Assembly (NCBI GenBank): GCA_038043385.1
Contig: JBBTCA010000001.1
Coordinates: forward strand, 171,357 to 235,356
DNA length: 64,000 nt
Reading direction: 5' to 3'
From: Pseudomonadota bacterium
Lineage (GTDB): Bacteria > Pseudomonadota > Gammaproteobacteria > Pseudomonadales > Moraxellaceae
Positions 6,074 through 38,295 of this stretch are shown piece by piece (position 1 is the stretch's first letter; each line of letters starts with the position of its first letter). A model generated the notes under the pieces. The model did not search any database and had not been told where the DNA came from. It was given only the letters and a program-made list of their open reading frames with translations. The translations under genes and the position numbers were made by a program.

Positions 6074-6900
6074 CCAACGCCATGCCGACGCAGATCTGGT
6101 ACGGCGATGAAGCCGTCGCGCATTGGGCGGCGGATGATCGTGGCATTGCCTATGGTGATGGCCTGTTCGAGACCATTCGCGTCTGTGCCGGTCGTGGCGT
6201 GCTGCTGGATGAGCATCTGCAGCGTTTGCAGCAGGGCTGTCGGCAGCTCGGCATTCCGTTTTTGCCGGCTTGGCCGCAGCACATCAGCCGATTTCTGGCC
6301 TCTGTGGCCGAGGATGGCATCCTGCGTGTGCAGGTGACGCGCGGCGCCGGGGGCCGTGGCTATCAGTCGCCGCCATCGATCACGCCGGGTTTTGCGCTGA
6401 GCTGGCATGCGTTGCCGAGCTATCCGGCGCAATACGCGCAGTGGGGCATTCGCGTGGCCGATGCGCCGTTTGCGTTGGCGGCGCAACCAGTGCTGGCCGG
6501 CATCAAACACAGCAATCGCCTGGAGCAAGTCTTGCTGCGCGACGCCTTGGCGACCCAGCCGCAATGTCAGGAGCTGGTGGTCTGTAATGCTGCCGGCGAG
6601 CTGGTCGAGGGCGTGTTCTCCAATCTCTTTCTGGTGCTTGACGGCCTCTTGCTGACGCCACCGGTGACCGCCTGCGGCATTGCCGGTGCGCTGCGCGCAG
6701 CTTTGCTGAGCGATGCACCTTTGTCGGTGCAGATCGCCACGCTAACGCCAGATGATCTGCTGGCCGCCGATGAAGTGTTTTTTGCCAACAGCGTCATGGG
6801 CATCTGGCCGGTTGCCGCTTATCGCCAACGGGCTTGGCCTGTGGGCCAATACACCCGACAATGCCAGGCTCATATCGCTGCCTGGTTTGCTCCCGCATGA
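6070..6900 (+). CDS. pabC: aminodeoxychorismate lyase
   Basis: [31 protein letters not shown]; conserved position after fabF. Confidence 0.92.
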
Positions 6901-7913
6901 GTCATGTTCGCCCGCGCAAGACCGTTGCTCCTCGTCCAAAACGCCGCATCCGCGTGTTCTGGGGAGTGGTCGTGTTGCTGGCGATACTTATCTATCGCAC
7001 GCTCCTGCAGTCGTTTGATCTGCCACCGCAGGGCTATCGCCTGAAAGTGCCGCGCGGCAGCAGCTGGGTCAGCGTGGCCGAGCAACTGGCCGAACAGAAT
7101 TTCATTACCTCGGCACTGAGCTTGCGCGTGTGGTTGTGGCTGCGGCCGGGCGAGGAAGTGCTGCGCTCTGGCGTCTTTGTGCTACGGCCCCCCATGACGC
7201 TGGATCAGCTCGTGCAGCGTCTGGCCGAGGCTCCCGATGGCACACAGCCGCTGGTGCTGATCGAGGGCGAGCGCTTCAAGGATCTGCGCAAGAAGCTGGC
7301 CGATCGCGACGATGTGCGTCAGGTCATGACGACCTTGACGGACAATGAAGTGCTGGGTGCCATCGGTGCCGAAGAGAGGCATCCTGAGGGCTTGTTTGCG
7401 CCCAATACCTATGTGCTGGAAGAGGGTGAGCGCGATCTCGACATTCTGCGCCGGCTCTATCAGCGGCAAAAACGCATCCTTGCCGAGGAGTGGGCCGGGC
7501 GGCAGTTGGGGCTGCCTTACAACAATGCCTACGAAGCCTTGATCATGGCGTCGATCATTGAAAAGGAAACCGGCGCGGCGGCTGAGCGTGAGCAGATTGC
7601 CGGTGTTTTTGTTCGTCGCTTGCAGATCGGCATGCGTCTACAGACGGACCCGACCGTCATCTACGGCGTGGGTGAGCGCTACAAGGGCGATATCACGCGA
7701 GCGCATCTGCGCCAGGACACGCCTTATAATACCTACCGCCGTGCCGGCCTGCCGCCCACGCCGATTGCCAATCCGGGCCGCGCCGCCATTCATGCCGCCC
7801 TGCATCCGGCCGAGGGCGATGCCCTGTATTTTGTGGCTGGCAGTGACGGTCGCCATATTTTCTCGGCCAATCTGACCGACCATAATCGCGCGGTCAACCG
7901 CCACCAACGCTGA
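6897..7913 (+). CDS. mltG: endolytic transglycosylase MltG
   Basis: N-terminal TM, EGLFAPNTY, ASIIEKETG, RLQTDPTVIYG, YNTY, LPPTPIANPG; ATG 6897 overlaps the pabC stop. Confidence 0.94.
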   Translation: MSHVRPRKTVAPRPKRRIRVFWGVVVLLAILIYRTLLQSFDLPPQGYRLKVPRGSSWVSVAEQLAEQNFITSALSLRVWLWLRPGEEVLRSGVFVLRPPMTLDQLVQRLAEAPDGTQPLVLIEGERFKDLRKKLADRDDVRQVMTTLTDNEVLGAIGAEERHPEGLFAPNTYVLEEGERDLDILRRLYQRQKRILAEEWAGRQLGLPYNNAYEALIMASIIEKETGAAAEREQIAGVFVRRLQIGMRLQTDPTVIYGVGERYKGDITRAHLRQDTPYNTYRRAGLPPTPIANPGRAAIHAALHPAEGDALYFVAGSDGRHIFSANLTDHNRAVNRHQR

Positions 7914-28597: not shown

Positions 28598-30487
28598 TTA
28601 AAGCTCGACCTGCGTACCCATCTCCACCACACGGTTGGTCGGGATCTGGAAAAAGTCGGTGGCCGAGACTGCGTTACGCGCCATCGCCACAAACAGCTTT
28701 TCGCGCCAGCGCGACATGCCGTGACGACCGTTCGCGATGATGCGCTCACGGGACACGAAGAAGCTCGTGTCCATCATATCGAAGCTCAAGCCCTGCGTTT
28801 TGCAGAGCGTGAACAGTGCCGGCACATCGGGTTGTTCCTTGAAACCGTAGGCGGCTGTGACCAAGTAGAACTCATGCGCAATACGCTCGATGACCAGGCG
28901 CTCGCTATCATCCACAAAGGGCACATCGCGGGTCATCAGCGTGAGCAGCACATTGCGCTCGTGGATGATCTTGTTGTGCTTCATGTTGTGCAGCAGCGCG
29001 TGCGGCACATAGTGATGCGAGCCGGTCATGAACACCGCCGTGCCTGGCACCGTCTGGCCGGCGCTGGCGCCAATGCTGTTGATGAAGAGCTTGAGCGGCA
29101 TGGTCTCGGAATTCAGGCGATGACTGAGAATGTCCCGCCCTGCCTTCCAGGTTGCCATCACGAAAAATGCCGAACAGCCAATCGCCAGCGGGAACCAGCC
29201 GCCCTGCAGCACTTTCAGCGATGTGGCGCCGAAGAACACCAGATCCACAGCCAGGAATGGTATGGCAACGGCCGCCGCCAGTGCCGGGTGCCAACCCCAC
29301 AGCTTATGTGCGACCACGAGCAGCAGCAGGGCATCGCAGATCATGGTCATGGTCACGGCAATGCCGTAGGCAGAAGCCAGGTTGCTCGACGACTTAAATA
29401 CCAGCACTAGCAGGATGATGGTGCCCAGCAGTGTCCAGTTGAAAAACGGAATATAGATCTGGCCCATCTCGCGATCGGAGGTGTGGTTGATCTGGAAGCG
29501 CGGCAGATAGCCCAGCAGCATGGCCTGACGGGCAATCGAGAAGACCCCGGAGATCACGGCCTGCGATGCAATCACGGTGGCCAGCGTGGACAGCATAATC
29601 AACGGCACCAAGCCCCAGTCCGGCACCAGCCGGTAGAACGGATTCTCGATGGCGGTGGGATCGCTGAGCAGCAGTGCACCTTGGCCGGCGTAATTCAGCA
29701 GCAGTGCCGGAAACACCAGAAAGAACCACGCACGACGGATCGGCTTGCGGCCAAAATGGCCCATGTCGGCATACAGCGCCTCGCCGCCGGTCACGGTCAG
29801 CACCACCGCACCCATGGCAATGAACGCGGCCAGCGGATGCTCACCAATAAAACTGATGGCCCAGACCGGATTCACCAGCATCAGCACTTCCGGCGAGTGA
29901 CGCACATTAGCGATGCCGAGCACGGCCAGCGTGGTGAACCAGACCAGCATCACCGGCCCGAAAAAGGTGCCAATCGACGCCGTGCCGTGGCGCTGAATCA
30001 GGAACAGCGAAATCAGCACAGCGATGGTGATGGGGATAACGAACGCCTCCAGCCCCGGCGACACCACCTTCAAGCCCTCGACGGCCGACAGCACTGAGAT
30101 GGCGGGCGTGATCATGCCATCGCCAAAGAACAGCGCGGCACCGAACAGGCCGATGCCGATCAGCACGGGGCGTAGCCAGGTATGGCGATACTGAGCGCGC
30201 AAGGCCAGCGCCAGCAGGGCCATGATGCCGCCCTCGCCACGGTTGTCGGCACGCATGATAAAGGCGATGTACTTGATGGACACGATGATGGTCATCGACC
30301 AAAAAATCATGGACAGGATACCGAGCACATTGGCCTGTGTGAGCTCCAGGCCGTGGGCTGCGTGAAAGCATTCCTTGAGCGCGTAAAGCGGACTGGTGCC
30401 GATATCGCCGAAGACCACACCGAGCGCGCCTGCAGTGAGGGCCAGCTGGTGCTTGAAGCGGGGTGAGCCGGATGACTCAGCTTGCAT
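28598..30487 (-). CDS. kup: potassium uptake protein Kup
   Basis: LGVVFGDIGTSPLYA, DNRGEGG, GGEALYADMGHFG, GQIYIP, AYGIAVT; start trimmed to 30487 because the longer ORF overlaps the tRNA. Confidence 0.96.
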   Translation of the reverse strand: MQAESSGSPRFKHQLALTAGALGVVFGDIGTSPLYALKECFHAAHGLELTQANVLGILSMIFWSMTIIVSIKYIAFIMRADNRGEGGIMALLALALRAQYRHTWLRPVLIGIGLFGAALFFGDGMITPAISVLSAVEGLKVVSPGLEAFVIPITIAVLISLFLIQRHGTASIGTFFGPVMLVWFTTLAVLGIANVRHSPEVLMLVNPVWAISFIGEHPLAAFIAMGAVVLTVTGGEALYADMGHFGRKPIRRAWFFLVFPALLLNYAGQGALLLSDPTAIENPFYRLVPDWGLVPLIMLSTLATVIASQAVISGVFSIARQAMLLGYLPRFQINHTSDREMGQIYIPFFNWTLLGTIILLVLVFKSSSNLASAYGIAVTMTMICDALLLLVVAHKLWGWHPALAAAVAIPFLAVDLVFFGATSLKVLQGGWFPLAIGCSAFFVMATWKAGRDILSHRLNSETMPLKLFINSIGASAGQTVPGTAVFMTGSHHYVPHALLHNMKHNKIIHERNVLLTLMTRDVPFVDDSERLVIERIAHEFYLVTAAYGFKEQPDVPALFTLCKTQGLSFDMMDTSFFVSRERIIANGRHGMSRWREKLFVAMARNAVSATDFFQIPTNRVVEMGTQVEL

Positions 30488-30596
30488 ACAGATCCTCGAT
30501 GGGCGAGCAGCGAATCTGCCGGCCACCTCGTTTGCGGGCAGTGATTTTAGCACCGCTATTGGCGCGATAGCCAAGCACTTGCCGTGCAAAAAGGCT

Positions 30597-30625
30597 TTGC
30601 CTTGCCGTAGAGCTTCCGCTAGGAT
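30597..30625 (+). promoter_or_regulatory. sigma70 promoter for tRNA-Ser
   Basis: TTGCCT (30597-30602), N17, TAGGAT (30620-30625), then GC-rich discriminator GCGCGCCG. Confidence 0.6.
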
Positions 30626-30659
30626 TGCGCGCCGCTGAAGTGCAAAGCTTCGGCGCGCT

Positions 30660-30750
30660 GGTGAGGTGTCCGAGTGGCTGAAGGAGCACGCCTGGAAAGC
30701 GTGTATACGGTAATCCCGTATCGAGGGTTCGAATCCCTCTCTCACCGCCA
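30660..30750 (+). tRNA. tRNA-Ser(GGA)
   Basis: Acceptor GGTGAGG/TCTCACC, D-arm GTCCGAGTGGCTGAAGGAG, anticodon arm CACGC-CTGGAAA-GCGTG, long variable arm, GGTTCGAATCC, encoded CCA. Confidence 0.97.
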
Positions 30751-30763
30751 AGTTAAATTCACT

Positions 30764-30790: not shown

Positions 30791-31134
30791 GTTTTCTAAG
30801 CCTCAAAAAATCATTCAGACCCCCCAAAAGAAACTTCAAAAATATTTGCTCATAAAATGAGAAGTCAAAAATAGCTCACCCCTTCGCTGACGGTGGAAGC
30901 TTTCATGGCGCGGGATCGGGGATTTCGACAGGCTCTGAAGTGAGAGGCGTAGTCGCCAAGCGCTTTGCGAGCAGCTGCTTCGGGGTACGATCAAACGAAG
31001 ACAAGGCCATACTTTCCTTATAGAAATAGATTTCTAACATTTTTATGTTGAAACTAGCTTTTAATTCCGAATTAAAGGACTATCCTCCGCTGCAAGAGCG
31101 ACTGCAAACGAGCAGCGATGAGGGAGGAAAAGCC

Positions 31135-32319
31135 ATGCTTCGGTCATTCAGCCTGAAGAATTTTCAGTCATTCCTGGAAGAGGCCAGCATCTCGCTGGAG
31201 CTTAACAAGAATGCACCTGTTGATGATCGATCTGCTGAGTCTCAGACCGGTGATCGCATCACCAAAGTCATGGCGGTGATTGGTGCCAATGCCAGTGGTA
31301 AGACGACGCTGATCAAGTCGCTGGGCTTTCTGGATTGGTTCATCAAGTACTCGTTCCACAACCGTATCGACGCCGATCTGCCGATTGATCCGCATTTTTC
31401 AGCCCGTGACCAAGCCTCCGAATTTGAAGCTGAATTTGAAATGGATGGTCAGGTTTGGCGCTATAGCCTTCAGGCCACTCGCGAGCGCGTCTTGCTGGAG
31501 TCCTTGCATCGCAGGCTGAGCCGTACATTTTCCTATGTGTTCATTCGCACTTGGGATGCTGATGCCAATACCTATACGGTCAAGCAGCAGCAGTTTGGCA
31601 TGCCGCAGCGCGAGGCGGTGAAGACCCGGCCGAATGCGTCGATGATCTCAACCGCTGCGCAGTTTGATGTCGATCTCGCGACCCGTTTGGTTAACCTGCA
31701 GGTGTTCAGCAATGTCACCGGTATGGGCCGTGCCTACATGGACAACAACCAGATTCTGTTGGCCTCTGACTTTTATGCCCAAAACGAGCTTTATCAAACC
31801 CAAATGTCGAACTTGTTGCGACAGTGGGACTTGGGCTTGTCTGCCGTGAGGCTGGTAAAGCAGGAAGTTACCGACAGTAATGGCGAGAAAAAAGAGATTC
31901 ATGTGCCGTATGGCGTGCATGCCATCCATGGCCGAGAACATGAATTGATCCTCATGCAGGAGTCCAGCGGTACGCAAGGCGCATTTACCTTGCTGTCTCG
32001 CATCTTGCCGGCGCTGAGCGCAGGCGGCTTGGCGATCATTGACGAATTGGAGTCAGACCTGCATCCGCACATGCTGACGCCTATTCTGAATCTATTTTTC
32101 TCGCCCAAGACCAATCCGCATAACGCGCAGATCATCTTCACGACGCATGCCATCGAGGTCATGAATCAGCTGCACAAAGCTCAAATCGTGCTGGTCGAAA
32201 AAGATGCTGCTTGCGAGAGTGATGCCTGGCGGCTGGATGACATCAAGGGCGTACGCGTGGAGGACAACCTCTACGCCAAATACATGGCTGGCGCGTACGG
32301 CGCTATTCCTCAGTTCTGA
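31135..32319 (+). CDS. ABC/AAA_21-type ATPase (RloA/AbiLi/AriA-like)
   Basis: MLRSFSLKNFQSF start after GGAGG RBS, Walker A GANASGKTT, signature ESSGT, Walker B AIIDELE, H-loop QIIFTTH, C-terminal YMAGAYGAIP. Confidence 0.88.
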   Translation: MLRSFSLKNFQSFLEEASISLELNKNAPVDDRSAESQTGDRITKVMAVIGANASGKTTLIKSLGFLDWFIKYSFHNRIDADLPIDPHFSARDQASEFEAEFEMDGQVWRYSLQATRERVLLESLHRRLSRTFSYVFIRTWDADANTYTVKQQQFGMPQREAVKTRPNASMISTAAQFDVDLATRLVNLQVFSNVTGMGRAYMDNNQILLASDFYAQNELYQTQMSNLLRQWDLGLSAVRLVKQEVTDSNGEKKEIHVPYGVHAIHGREHELILMQESSGTQGAFTLLSRILPALSAGGLAIIDELESDLHPHMLTPILNLFFSPKTNPHNAQIIFTTHAIEVMNQLHKAQIVLVEKDAACESDAWRLDDIKGVRVEDNLYAKYMAGAYGAIPQF

Positions 32320-32331
32320 GGGGTATGAAGA

Positions 32332-32841
32332 GTGGCTAAACGCATCCGTCATACCCGAAGCACGCTGCTCGTCGTAGGCGAGGGCGATACCGAGGTGGCC
32401 TTTCTGAGGCACCTGCGTGTGATCTTTTGCTCAGACGGCAAAGGGGTCGAGGTCACCATCCGGAATGCTTACGGAAAAGGCCCGGAGAATGTGATCAACA
32501 CCGTGATCGGCCATTGCCGCAGCATTGACTATGACCATCGCATGGCGTTTTTGGATACGGATTTGTTGTGGACGGCCAGCCTGAAAAAACAGGCTCGGGC
32601 GGAGAAGGTTGAGATGATCGGGTCGACACCTTGCATCGAGGGCTTGCTGCTTCAGATTTTGGGCGAGCCCGTGCCCTCGTCATCTTCAGCGTGCAAGAAA
32701 AAGCTTCAGGATTTATTAGGTTCGGACATGACTGATCGTGATCATTATGGCAGTCGGTTTTCCCGTGGAGTTTTGATGGCTGCGCGCCTGAAAATACCTG
32801 AACTCCATGCGCTTCTGAATCGCTTTGACGGCGGCAAGTGA
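32332..32841 (+). CDS. RloB-like TOPRIM-fold protein
   Basis: LLVVGEGDTEVAFL (EGxTE), FLDTD (DxD), STPCIEGLLL; directly after the ATPase. Confidence 0.8.
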   Translation: MAKRIRHTRSTLLVVGEGDTEVAFLRHLRVIFCSDGKGVEVTIRNAYGKGPENVINTVIGHCRSIDYDHRMAFLDTDLLWTASLKKQARAEKVEMIGSTPCIEGLLLQILGEPVPSSSSACKKKLQDLLGSDMTDRDHYGSRFSRGVLMAARLKIPELHALLNRFDGGK

Positions 32842-33069
32842 TGAGCCTCACGCGAGACTGTCAAACAGACCGTAGTTGAGCGCGTTGCGCGTGATCAGTC
32901 GTTTGCGAAAGCGCTGCTGGCCTCGCTCACCGAAAAGCCCAGCAAAAGCCTGCATCGCATGCTGTCCTCGAAGGATAATCCCAGCATGGATAATCTCGCC
33001 GCGATCTTCGGTGCTCTCAAGGATGCCCTGCAGGTCAGATTTGATGTGCGCGTGGTCGAGGCAGCCTGA
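32841..33069 (+). pseudogene. frameshifted HigA-like/addiction-module antidote HTH protein
   Basis: MSLTRD, then a +1 frameshift (TGTC at 32859-32862), then KQTVVERVARDQSFAKALL...KPSKSLHRMLSSKDNPSMDNLAAIFGAL...VEAA*. Confidence 0.7.
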
Positions 33070-33197
33070 GTGGCGCACAGCACATTTGTTTAGATTTTTC
33101 GCTGAAATTCGTCCCTAGCTATAAATTTGGCGACAAATCTAATCATTTTGCAGCTCTGTTATGATTTGTTCGCAGTTTGCGAATATGGAATGGCAAC

Positions 33198-33698
33198 ATG
33201 AATCTCAAGCCACAAGATGTCATGGTCGTGCTCGGCGCTGTCATCAAGCCGCCGGCAAGTGCGATCTATCAGGATCGGGCCTGGCAGCTCGCCATGAGTA
33301 GCTCAGAAGTTCATGCAGCTGATCGCCGGCTGAAAGCAGCTGGCTTGCTGGCCGAAGGGCGGCCAGTACGGGCGGCGCTGGAGGAGTTTCTGGTTCATGG
33401 CCTGCGTTATGTTTTTGTGCCTGAGCTAGGTTCGGTGGTCAGAGGTATGCCGACTGCCCATGCCGGCCCGGGTTTGTCGGCATTGTTCGCCGAAGACGAG
33501 CTGCCCCCGGTCTGGCCAGACCCTGAAGGTCAGATTCGTGGCTTATCGTTCTCGCCGTTATATCGATCAGCGCCAGAAGCTGCGCGTCGTGACATCAGGT
33601 TGTATGAGCTGCTGGCACTGGCGGATGCGTTGCGTGGTGGCCGTGCTCGCGAGCGCAAGCTAGCGGCTGAATTGATGCGCAAACACTTGAGCCGGTGA
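33198..33698 (+). CDS. winged-HTH hypothetical protein, likely antitoxin-like partner of nucleotidyltransferase toxins
   Basis: MNLKPQDV...AMSSSEVHAADRRL...EEFLVHGLRYVF...RGMPTA...PVWP...PLY...LYELLALADALRGGRARER; family association recalled, not searched. Confidence 0.65.
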   Translation: MNLKPQDVMVVLGAVIKPPASAIYQDRAWQLAMSSSEVHAADRRLKAAGLLAEGRPVRAALEEFLVHGLRYVFVPELGSVVRGMPTAHAGPGLSALFAEDELPPVWPDPEGQIRGLSFSPLYRSAPEAARRDIRLYELLALADALRGGRARERKLAAELMRKHLSR

Positions 33699-33750
33699 AA
33701 AGTTTGATGGAAGTTGCTCTATCTCCCTCACCGTTCAGGAGCACTGATCA

Positions 33751-34164
33751 TTGTCACTGAAACCAGCATTACTTGAGCAGCGAGTACAGAGGCTTGTTGC
33801 CGAATATCCTGGCGATGTGTTTTTGCGCGCTGACTTTGAGGGGCTGGGCGGCTACGCTCAAGTTGGCCGTGCATTGCATGCAATGGTCAAAAGCGAGAAA
33901 TTGCTCAGGATTGGCTATGGCGTCTATGCCCGTGCGGTGACAAGTCCCATCAGCGGCAAGCCAATGCCACCAAAGGGCTTGGTTACCCTCATAGAAGCCG
34001 TGGAACGGCTAGGCTTCAAAGTGCTGCCAACGCGTATGGATCAGAACTATAGCAGTGGTAAAACGACTCAAGTACCAACGGGTCGTGCCGTTGCCATCAA
34101 GGGCCGCCTTCGGCGAAAGCTCGGCTATAACGGTGTTTATCTGAGTTTTGAGCGTGCTAAGTGA
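33751..34164 (+). CDS. DUF6088/AbiEi-like type IV antitoxin
   Basis: VFLRADF..LGGYAQVGRAL...LLRIGYGVYARA wHTH and TTQVP motif. Confidence 0.7.
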   Translation: MSLKPALLEQRVQRLVAEYPGDVFLRADFEGLGGYAQVGRALHAMVKSEKLLRIGYGVYARAVTSPISGKPMPPKGLVTLIEAVERLGFKVLPTRMDQNYSSGKTTQVPTGRAVAIKGRLRRKLGYNGVYLSFERAK

Positions 34165-34228
34165 TCGTAGTCTTACCGGAACCATTCGGGCCGGCAACAA
34201 CGATCAGGATTGGTCTATCACCAGTCAC
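34157..34228 (-). pseudogene. truncated zeta-toxin-like P-loop kinase (first 23 codons only)
   Basis: GTG-start MTGDRPILIVVAGPNGSGKTTIT*: Walker A then an immediate stop; overlaps the stop of the upstream 59-aa ORF. Confidence 0.65.
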
Positions 34229-34397
34229 GGGCTAGTTCCTGGCGGCGGACTACCCCTGAATTGATCGCGGCCTTGAGTCGTTCCGAGTGAGTTGCCATCG
34301 CCTGCGTACGACGCTCGATAGCTTCAATCCTAGCGTTGCGCATAACCGCACCTAGTGCGCGCTCGCCCTGACTTTCGGAAGGTGATTTTTTGATCAT
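34218..34397 (-). CDS. 59-aa hypothetical protein, putative partner of zeta-like gene (missed by ORF track)
   Basis: MIKKSPSESQGERALGAVMRNARIEAIERRTQAMATHSERLKAAINSGVVRRQELARDW*; AGGAAAAT before ATG. Confidence 0.55.
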   Translation of the reverse strand: MIKKSPSESQGERALGAVMRNARIEAIERRTQAMATHSERLKAAINSGVVRRQELARDW

Positions 34398-34451
34398 ATT
34401 TTCCTGCCTTAGACAAAAGCTATGTGTGACAGTATAGCTCTCGGATGAGCT

Positions 34452-34574
34452 TTAATCGGGCATTTTCGAGCTTTCCTGCAGTACTTTGGACGCGACCAGT
34501 CCTTCCAAGGCTGAGCTTGCCATCGCATTGCGGGCGGCGCGTTCGCGTCGCTTTCTGAGTTCGAGTTCAGGCAT
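34452..34574 (-). pseudogene. VbhA-like Fic antitoxin remnant (40 aa)
   Basis: MPELELRKRRERAARNAMASSALEGLVASK...: NAxASxxLEG contains the SxxxEG Fic-inhibitory motif. Confidence 0.65.
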
Positions 34575-34746
34575 GGCTGGTTGCTCTGTTGTGCATGCTC
34601 AATGCTTTAGGCTAGCTATCGCGAGGGTCTAATTTTTCTGGTTTGGCATGGGGTGCTAAGTATAGGAATTATGGTGGGTATGATTGCTGAATATGTATAC
34701 AAGTAATTGATTTTAAACATATAGTTGGTCTCTCTCACCGCCGTAT

Positions 34747-34833: not shown

Positions 34834-38295
<3,462 letters not shown>

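Follow-up and report, generated by a model that had tools for sequence, protein, structure and literature searches.

We analysed a stretch of 64 kb, here called the window, from a groundwater metagenome-assembled genome of the Pseudomonadota (Moraxellaceae; contig JBBTCA010000001.1). Between positions 32838 and 34574 it carries five antitoxin-type genes and no cognate toxin. On the plus strand these are the pseudogene of a helix-turn-helix (HTH) antidote, the gene of a winged-helix-turn-helix (wHTH) protein of 166 amino acids (aa) and the gene of a short AbiEi-type antitoxin of the DUF6088 family; on the minus strand follow a 59-aa gene, which stands in the antitoxin position of a truncated zeta-like toxin gene, and the remnant of a VbhA-like gene (Table 1). 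A preliminary description of this DNA had listed the same five elements as antitoxins without toxins, and we find all of them at or close to the positions given there, using hidden Markov models (HMMs) and comparison with relatives. The toxin searches covered the window. With tblastn we found no homologue of zeta, TIGR02683, PDC-M21B or HepT beyond the zeta stub (AbiEii was not among the queries), and a regular expression for the Fic motif had no match. What we say about function derives throughout from family membership, gene context and signs of selection.

The five genes are part of a 4-kb island of low GC content (0.51-0.55 from 30751 to about 34742, versus about 0.62 outside). Like integrative and conjugative elements (ICEs), the island is inserted at the 3′ end of a tRNA gene and flanked by direct repeats. 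The last 13 nt of tRNA-Ser(GGA), CTCTCTCACCGCC, recur at the right boundary; the window contains this pattern twice, where 0.12 occurrences would be expected by chance. On the left lies kup (28598-30751, minus strand), on the right katG (34834-37014, minus strand). A 490-aa open reading frame (ORF) antisense to katG (35518-36990, plus strand) is a typical spurious long ORF of GC-rich DNA and no gene candidate. From left to right the island contains the 3′ remnant of a DUF2274 gene, an AbiLi/AbiLii pair and then the five antitoxin-type elements. In related ICEs, DUF2274 comes after trbI, as judged from the gene order in two of them (L019 and L049). Homologues of an integrase or of a type IV secretion system (T4SS) were not found in the window, and the DUF2274 remnant is the sole trace of an ICE core. 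Since the integrase, the relaxase or coupling protein and the T4SS of an ICE are all missing, we regard the island as the remnant of an ICE and not as an ICE.

Related loci, labelled L003, L015 and so on, were compared with the window. Around the zeta stub and the 59-aa gene, the nucleotide identity to L003 is about 96%. The L003/L004 island comprises DUF2274, a TIGR02683 toxin gene, the antidote gene, a broken 166-aa gene, a LysR fragment, cargo, and then the genes of zeta, the 59-aa protein and a 66-aa VbhA-like protein, with a split integrase gene at its far end. L015 matches the window at 93-96% identity from 32208 to 34157 and carries AbiLii, an intact antidote gene, the 166-aa gene, DUF6088 and LysR. 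In L049/L050 we find an intact ICE with TraG, TrbB-C-D-E-J-L-F-G-I and DUF2274, followed by PDC-M21A, PDC-M21B (2e-67), AbiEi_3 and a convergent LysR gene; its PDC-M21A is 92% identical to the 166-aa protein of the window. L050 on its right and L003 on its left are flanked by the same piece of chromosome (97.6% identity), so that one site shows an intact and a decayed ICE. At this shared site (L050 1-14700 and L003 1773-7414) an IS3-like fragment lies at the junction. The cargo also differs there, with PDC-M21A+B and AbiEi_3 in L050 and HigBA-like and zeta modules in L003. Intact toxin-antitoxin (TA) pairs, for which the preliminary description had proposed to search related islands, are indeed present: TIGR02683 with the antidote and VbhA-59aa-zeta in L003, PDC-M21A with PDC-M21B in L049-L052, and DUF6088 with AbiEii in L041-L048.

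Taken together, we consider it very probable that the island is an eroded right-hand cargo end, left by a dead Trb-type ICE that had inserted at tRNA-Ser(GGA), and that its antitoxins were orphaned by stepwise decay in which the toxins were lost first.

Table 1. Positions and assignments of the features of the island in the window
Feature	Position	Strand	Assignment or remark
tRNA-Ser(GGA)	30660..30750	+	ARAGORN; left boundary and integration site of the island
DUF2274 gene, 3′ remnant (..EAFMARDRGFRQ..)	30875..30940	+	tblastn with DUF2274 of L003 and L019; blastn to L003 12852-13004
AbiLi-like AAA ATPase, intact	31045..32319	+	PADLOC AbiLi 3.6e-76; Pfam AAA_21 8e-30
AbiLii/RloB-like protein, intact	32332..32841	+	PADLOC AbiLii 7.9e-17; Pfam RloB 2.6e-6, below cut-off
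HTH antidote pseudogene	32838..33069	+	+1 frameshift and 96-nt in-frame deletion relative to intact orthologues
166-aa wHTH protein, PDC-M21A family, intact, without PDC-M21B	33198..33698	+	PADLOC 5.3e-36
137-aa short AbiEi-type antitoxin (DUF6088), intact, without AbiEii	33751..34164	+	PADLOC AbiEi
Zeta-like toxin stub, 23 codons including Walker A GPNGSGKT, then stop	34157..34228	-	Translation; tblastn
Deletion junction	34158..34161	.	blastn end points 34157 and 34161; three-way alignment
59-aa gene, antitoxin position of zeta-like toxin, intact	34218..34397	-	Overlap and context in relatives
VbhA-like remnant, 40 aa	34452..34574	-	78-nt in-frame deletion (26 internal codons) of 66-aa gene, at GAAA microhomology
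13-nt direct repeat of the tRNA-Ser 3′ end, CTCTCTCACCGCC	34730..34742	+	Right boundary, attR-like

Remnants and junctions

The zeta-like gene had been described as cut after 23 codons, and this number is exact. The stub (34228-34160, minus strand) reads VTGDRPILIVVAGPNGSGKTTIT and then a stop, and all 23 residues are identical to the N-terminus of the intact 205-aa zeta protein of L003, which matches Pfam Zeta_toxin with 3.4e-10 (40.1 bits, cut-off 22.3). As the remaining codons end at the Walker A motif, a zeta-family P-loop kinase is not encoded in the window. The cause of the truncation can be read from the junction at 34158-34161. To the left of it the sequence follows L015, which continues into LysR, and to the right it follows L003, which continues into the zeta toxin. 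The last codon and the stop of the DUF6088 gene derive from this junction. We also considered that an AbiEii gene was lost in the same deletion and rejected this, because the nearest relatives have DUF6088 directly followed by the convergent LysR gene.

The 59-aa gene overlaps the start of the intact 205-aa zeta gene by 11 nt in L003-L012; no antitoxin HMM matches its protein. A similar arrangement is found at larger distances. The zeta homologue of a Burkholderiaceae metagenome-assembled genome (L035, 76% identity) has a 59-aa homologue upstream, the homologues in Bacteroidota and Lentisphaerae genomes (L036-L039, 47-54% identity) have a small overlapping ORF upstream, and zeta homologues on plasmids show the same two-gene layout. 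Because this upstream partner recurs without VbhA, we assign the 59-aa gene as the positional antitoxin and the VbhA-like gene as a separate neighbour. Membership of VbhA in the zeta module was rejected, as the zeta genes of L035-L040 and of four plasmid loci have no VbhA gene upstream. In L035 two near-identical repeat units (6328-6585 and 7506-7751), which translate to MHATPRRGAGFVMALHARPLR, flank the 59aa-zeta module; they resemble repetitive extragenic palindromic (REP) or miniature inverted-repeat transposable element (MITE) type repeats.

The last element had been called a VbhA-like Fic antitoxin. The S-x-x-x-E-G motif, present as SSALEG, is compatible with this family, and the intact 66-aa gene of L003 scores 42.3 bits against Pfam VbhA (cut-off 25.9). 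The damaged window copy stays below the cut-off with 20.6 bits, and a Fic partner was not called adjacent to the gene in any of the ten related loci L003-L012.

At the other end of the set, the toxin was not truncated but replaced. In L003 a 115-aa RelE/ParE toxin matches TIGR02683 (3.5e-19, 69 bits, cut-off 62.85) and the antidote gene follows directly downstream with a GTGATGA overlap. In the window the place of this toxin is occupied by the AbiLi/AbiLii genes (31045-32841), which have the AbiL arrangement of an AAA ATPase followed by a RloB-like protein and are both intact. The junction alignment places the stop of AbiLii within the same AAGTGATGA string that holds the toxin stop and the antidote start in L003. 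The antidote pseudogene itself retains its start, GTGATG. An extra G at 32860, which is missing from related contigs, breaks the frame, and 96 nt are gone between 7-nt GCTGGCC repeats (32916-32922) when compared with the intact genes of 107/108 aa in L015 and L003. In a profile search the fragment did not match TIGR02684, the family model of HI1420-type HTH antidotes, and even the intact orthologues match it weakly (E = 0.009 and 0.03, far below the cut-off). The family call is therefore made from the intact orthologues, including the position after the TIGR02683 toxin in L003. What had been described as a HigA-like antidote pseudogene is clearly a pseudogene, and its intact orthologue in a sibling locus has a toxin partner.

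The HTH antidote gene of L015 (1-957), which is intact, comes after AbiLii and is translationally coupled to it, and the defence cassette may thus have taken over the antidote as its downstream gene. Between the antidote pseudogene and the 166-aa gene lies an imperfect 23-nt inverted repeat (33087-33145; 78% complementary, 13-nt spacer), which could be an operator. Upstream of the 166-aa genes of L019 and L050 this repeat is not conserved, as homology starts there only at about 33155.

Toxin and antitoxin genes are almost always adjacent and co-regulated. This speaks against the idea, which we regard as highly improbable, that the cognate toxins are encoded elsewhere in the genome, on another island, a plasmid or a prophage, and that the genes of the island are working antitoxins in trans. 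The truncated toxin stub in cis, the toxins in cis in sibling loci and the failure to find a related toxin in the window argue in the same direction. In favour of toxins acting from a distance one may say that 64 kb of the genome were examined and that orphan antitoxins paired with distant toxins have been discussed (PMC7192599).

The conserved pair of 166-aa and DUF6088 genes

Two of the five genes are intact and differ from the remnants in their history. The 166-aa protein has 3677 homologues. Its true start is at 33198, giving 166 and not 173 aa, because the N-terminal sequence MNLKPQDV is conserved in 32 homologues. The AlphaFold2 (AF2) model (pLDDT 79) has an N-terminal wHTH; structure searches (PDB profile, and Foldseek on the AF2 model) returned weak wHTH matches alone, with E values of at least 0.18, and no PDB match for the C-terminal alpha/beta domain. 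In the family this C-terminal domain contains the strongly conserved motifs HGLRYVF, PPVWPDPEG and GGRARER. We found no paper on "PDC-M21" in the literature. It had been proposed that the wHTH protein is normally paired with a nucleotidyltransferase (NTase), and the relatives agree with this. PDC-M21B, an NTase-like protein of about 235 aa, is encoded directly after the 166-aa homologue in L023, L028 and L049-L052 and is absent from the window; it is weakly AbiEii-like (Pfam E values 6e-4 to 7e-3, below cut-off). A fusion of the 166-aa domain with an MNT nucleotidyltransferase (287 aa) is encoded in L029 (3001-4207), immediately ahead of a short HepT gene. This suggests that the 166-aa domain is portable and serves NTase-based TA systems of different kinds as their front end.

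The 137-aa protein has likewise been correctly described as a DUF6088/AbiEi-like antitoxin. It matches the PADLOC AbiEi models with 2e-42 and 1.5e-40, whereas Pfam DUF6088 (1e-4) and AbiEi_4 both stay below their cut-offs, and it is full length (family range 134-145 aa). Homologues at 57-63% identity overlap and precede an AbiEii gene of 301-309 aa (L041-L048). In relatives at 79-91% identity no AbiEii is adjacent, as in the window. The literature on "DUF6088" consists of incidental mentions alone. A descent of the gene from the AbiEi_3 gene of L050 was rejected, since the wHTH motif is the sole shared part. That AbiEi_3 gene (254 aa; L049/L050 11530-12294) also lacks an adjacent AbiEii and lies between PDC-M21B and the convergent LysR gene, the slot that DUF6088 fills in the lineage of the window; this ICE family may generally have an AbiEi-type gene without a toxin there. 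Another DUF6088 gene, the second in L013 (152 aa), is followed after 33 nt by a DUF6933 gene (177 aa; 1062-2086 for both) and possibly has in it a further type of partner.

Both genes are co-oriented neighbours in the window, and their spacing falls within the 53-62 nt seen elsewhere. The layout of 166-aa gene, 53-62 nt, DUF6088 and convergent LysR, without an NTase gene, recurs in L015-L018 and in L019-L022, in the latter after TrbI-DUF2274 of another ICE. In L013 and L014 the two genes are adjacent, again without an NTase gene, and have different downstream neighbours; in L013 they overlap. Among the toxin-less lineages the ratio of nonsynonymous to synonymous substitution rates (dN/dS) is 0.06-0.09 for the 166-aa gene (dS up to 0.76) and 0.20-0.39 for the DUF6088 gene (dS up to 0.65). 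On the branch of the window we count 6 synonymous and no nonsynonymous changes in the 166-aa gene and 9 synonymous and 2 nonsynonymous changes in DUF6088. For the 59-aa gene and the VbhA remnant, with 5 and 11 differences, dN/dS is without power. The dN/dS analysis that the preliminary description had proposed for the intact orphans thus points to purifying selection on the two larger genes and has too few differences to judge the 59-aa gene. As far as these data go, purifying selection is clear for the 166-aa/DUF6088 pair only, not for the rest of the set. The two are therefore no fresh orphans but a toxin-less pair that purifying selection has maintained in several ICE contexts.

By analogy to AbiEi and SezA of ICESsuHN105, the two proteins are now most likely DNA-binding regulators; less likely, they neutralise related toxins in trans. 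A more specific form of the latter function, that the Trb-type ICE clade carries the toxin-less tandem of PDC-M21A-like and short AbiEi/DUF6088 genes in order to disarm AbiE-like NTase toxins of recipients or competing elements, and that the window copy is still selected and has outlived its ICE, appears unlikely to us. We find it quite unlikely, too, that the two genes form a self-contained system, be it a two-component regulator or a new pair of the TA-like or defence type, in which one of the proteins, for example through the C-terminal domain of the 166-aa protein, supplies the former effector activity of the NTase. The adjacency and common orientation at a spacing of 53-62 nt in several independent contexts, the overlap in L013, the purifying selection on both genes and the conserved C-terminal motifs without a PDB match would all fit such a system. 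However, the 166-aa family occupies the antitoxin or regulator position beside PDC-M21B and is found fused to an MNT antitoxin domain, the DUF6088 relatives are canonical AbiEi partners of AbiEii, and neither protein has a recognisable enzymatic domain.

A single RNA-seq run (X3) contained similar sequence. Its reads represent alleles of intact relatives and not of the island, and the run may contain DNA, so that it has no bearing on transcription of the island.

Decay history

We suggest that the decay proceeded in the following steps, of which (b) to (e) can be seen in the sequence comparisons. The original cargo end would have held a RelE/ParE toxin (TIGR02683) with its HTH antidote, a PDC-M21A gene with an NTase-like partner, an AbiEi-type gene, and a small antitoxin with a zeta-like kinase beside a solitary VbhA-like gene. 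The NTase-type partners of the 166-aa and DUF6088 genes would have been lost in an ancestor common to several ICEs, after which both genes were kept intact. Then, (a) a large deletion from attL to the last codons of DUF2274 would have removed the integrase and transfer genes and left about 4 kb. (b) The RelE/ParE reading frame was swapped for AbiLi/AbiLii, and L015 represents the intermediate in which the antidote is still intact. (c) Afterwards the antidote gene acquired its frameshift and lost 96 nt. (d) A single deletion at 34158-34161 fused the stop of DUF6088 to codon 23 of zeta; LysR, any cargo in between and the body of zeta from codon 24 on were lost in this event, and DUF6088 gained one codon and a new stop. 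(e) The VbhA-like gene was shortened by its 26 codons. The junctions are readable at base resolution, and both in-frame deletions show microhomology of 4-7 nt.

From established TA biology, the loss of a toxin can be survived and the loss of the antitoxin first is lethal, so that antitoxin genes remain. Antitoxins would thus build up as the surviving genes, and their own decay would follow when they are no longer of use. On the sequence comparisons, this stepwise, toxin-first decay is well supported as the origin of the orphan antitoxins. The preliminary description had already suspected a stepwise deletion of toxins from stacked TA modules. Intact sibling modules and readable junctions speak for this view, which has to be amended in three respects. 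Simple deletion does not describe every loss, as one toxin was swapped for the AbiL cassette and the zeta body went together with LysR; the VbhA-like gene, damaged itself, lacks a Fic partner in every relative compared; and the 166-aa and DUF6088 genes are no fresh orphans.

The alternative offered at that time was a retained anti-addiction cassette, that is, five genes selected for neutralising RelE/ParE toxins, AbiEii-type NTases, zeta and Fic proteins of incoming plasmids, ICEs and abortive-infection systems. All five genes are of the antitoxin type, no toxin was found within 64 kb, purifying selection maintains the 166-aa and DUF6088 genes in several ICE contexts although they lack toxins, and orphan antitoxins of mobile elements have been suggested to play such a role (PMC5675462; PMC7192599). 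For the set as a whole we nevertheless hold this explanation to be decidedly improbable. Two of the five genes are broken, the antidote being a pseudogene and the VbhA-like gene lacking 26 of 66 codons. Moreover, the set is not conserved as a unit, as L003, L015, L019 and L050 each have a different subset. The zeta stub, with 23/23 protein identity in a region of about 96% nucleotide identity to L003, points to recent loss and not to long retention; the same nucleotide identity indicates that the 59-aa gene was orphaned recently. The genes thus form a time series, with the antidote dead, the VbhA-like gene damaged and the 59-aa gene intact and recently orphaned, which argues against a selected cassette of five genes. 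An anti-addiction role is possible for the conserved 166-aa/DUF6088 pair.

Several observations weigh against our interpretation of a dead ICE with decayed modules and a pair of regulators. Exact-pattern scans of metagenome contigs, with tRNA-Ser joined to the katG flank and with the right flank alone, did not find an empty site, and an intact ICE at exactly this tRNA-Ser site was not found either; the boundaries of the island are therefore drawn from the repeat, the drop in GC content and homology. The toxin searches covered 64 kb of the genome. No current function can be demonstrated for the antidote, the VbhA-like gene and the 59-aa antitoxin, although the latter two may have one, their dN/dS being without power. 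On the branch of the window, the selection signal may be partly older than the decay of the island. For the proposed regulators we identified no operator of the pair, and a promoter/terminator scan gave counts no higher than in shuffles, a result at chance level that says nothing on expression.

Orphan antitoxins are numerous in genome surveys and their origin is usually left open. The locus and its siblings provide a base-resolution record of toxin-first decay. The zeta deletion spared both neighbouring genes, and two orphaned genes of decayed modules have been damaged since. In addition, the locus separates relics from genes that are still under selection, and its PDC-M21A-like/DUF6088 pair is a defined candidate for testing AbiE-type antitoxins as ICE regulators or anti-defence factors. 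The rest of the finding is well-documented but ordinary decay of a mobile element, an expected pattern.

Comparison with known systems

VbhA and FicA are antitoxins of class I Fic proteins and carry the inhibitory motif (S/T)xxxE(G/N). The intact orthologue of our VbhA-like gene passes the Pfam VbhA threshold and the window copy has kept the motif, but an adjacent Fic gene is found neither in the window nor in the ten related loci, and the window copy lacks its 26 codons.

The zeta module shares with epsilon/zeta and PezAT/SezAT the small upstream gene that overlaps the gene of a P-loop zeta-family kinase, and the order of small gene, antitoxin and zeta in L003 resembles omega-epsilon-zeta. 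The module differs from these systems in a short toxin of 205 aa that reaches only 40 bits against Zeta_toxin, in a 59-aa protein that fits no antitoxin model, and in a first gene that belongs to the VbhA family instead of encoding a ribbon-helix-helix repressor and that the next relatives lack; the window toxin is in addition cut at codon 23.

AbiE (AbiEi/AbiEii) is a type IV TA and abortive-infection system (PMC3985639); PDC-M21, with components A and B, is a candidate defence system of PADLOC. The window proteins match the AbiEi and PDC-M21A models, and their relatives adjoin AbiEii or the weakly AbiEii-like PDC-M21B. Here, however, both NTase genes are absent, and the antitoxin-type genes stand in tandem, an arrangement common to the ICE cargo ends of one clade. 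An ICE that carries SezAT as well as AbiE is ICESsuHN105, whose excision and copy number are under the control of AbiEi and SezA (PMC11062541). The likeness lies in wHTH antitoxins that are borne on an ICE, and functions beyond the neutralisation of a toxin are a model of why toxin-less copies could stay selected. ICESsuHN105 has retained both toxins, whereas the element described here belongs to a different ICE family, from Proteobacteria.

Finally, according to a survey in Klebsiella, orphan antitoxins are a frequent product of TA loci that degrade (PMC7192599), and the Bartonella plasmid pVbh carries four of them (PMC5675462). The proposed roles are those of a relic, a regulator or an anti-addiction factor, the last having been put forward for pVbh and for Klebsiella (PMC5675462, PMC7192599). 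Our locus agrees with these degraded loci in that antitoxins without a functional toxin are found, often in their original context on the non-toxin side (PMC7192599, PMC5675462). It differs from them in that five such genes lie within 1.7 kb, that the loss events are resolved to the base from sibling loci, and that one toxin was not mutated but swapped for a defence cassette.

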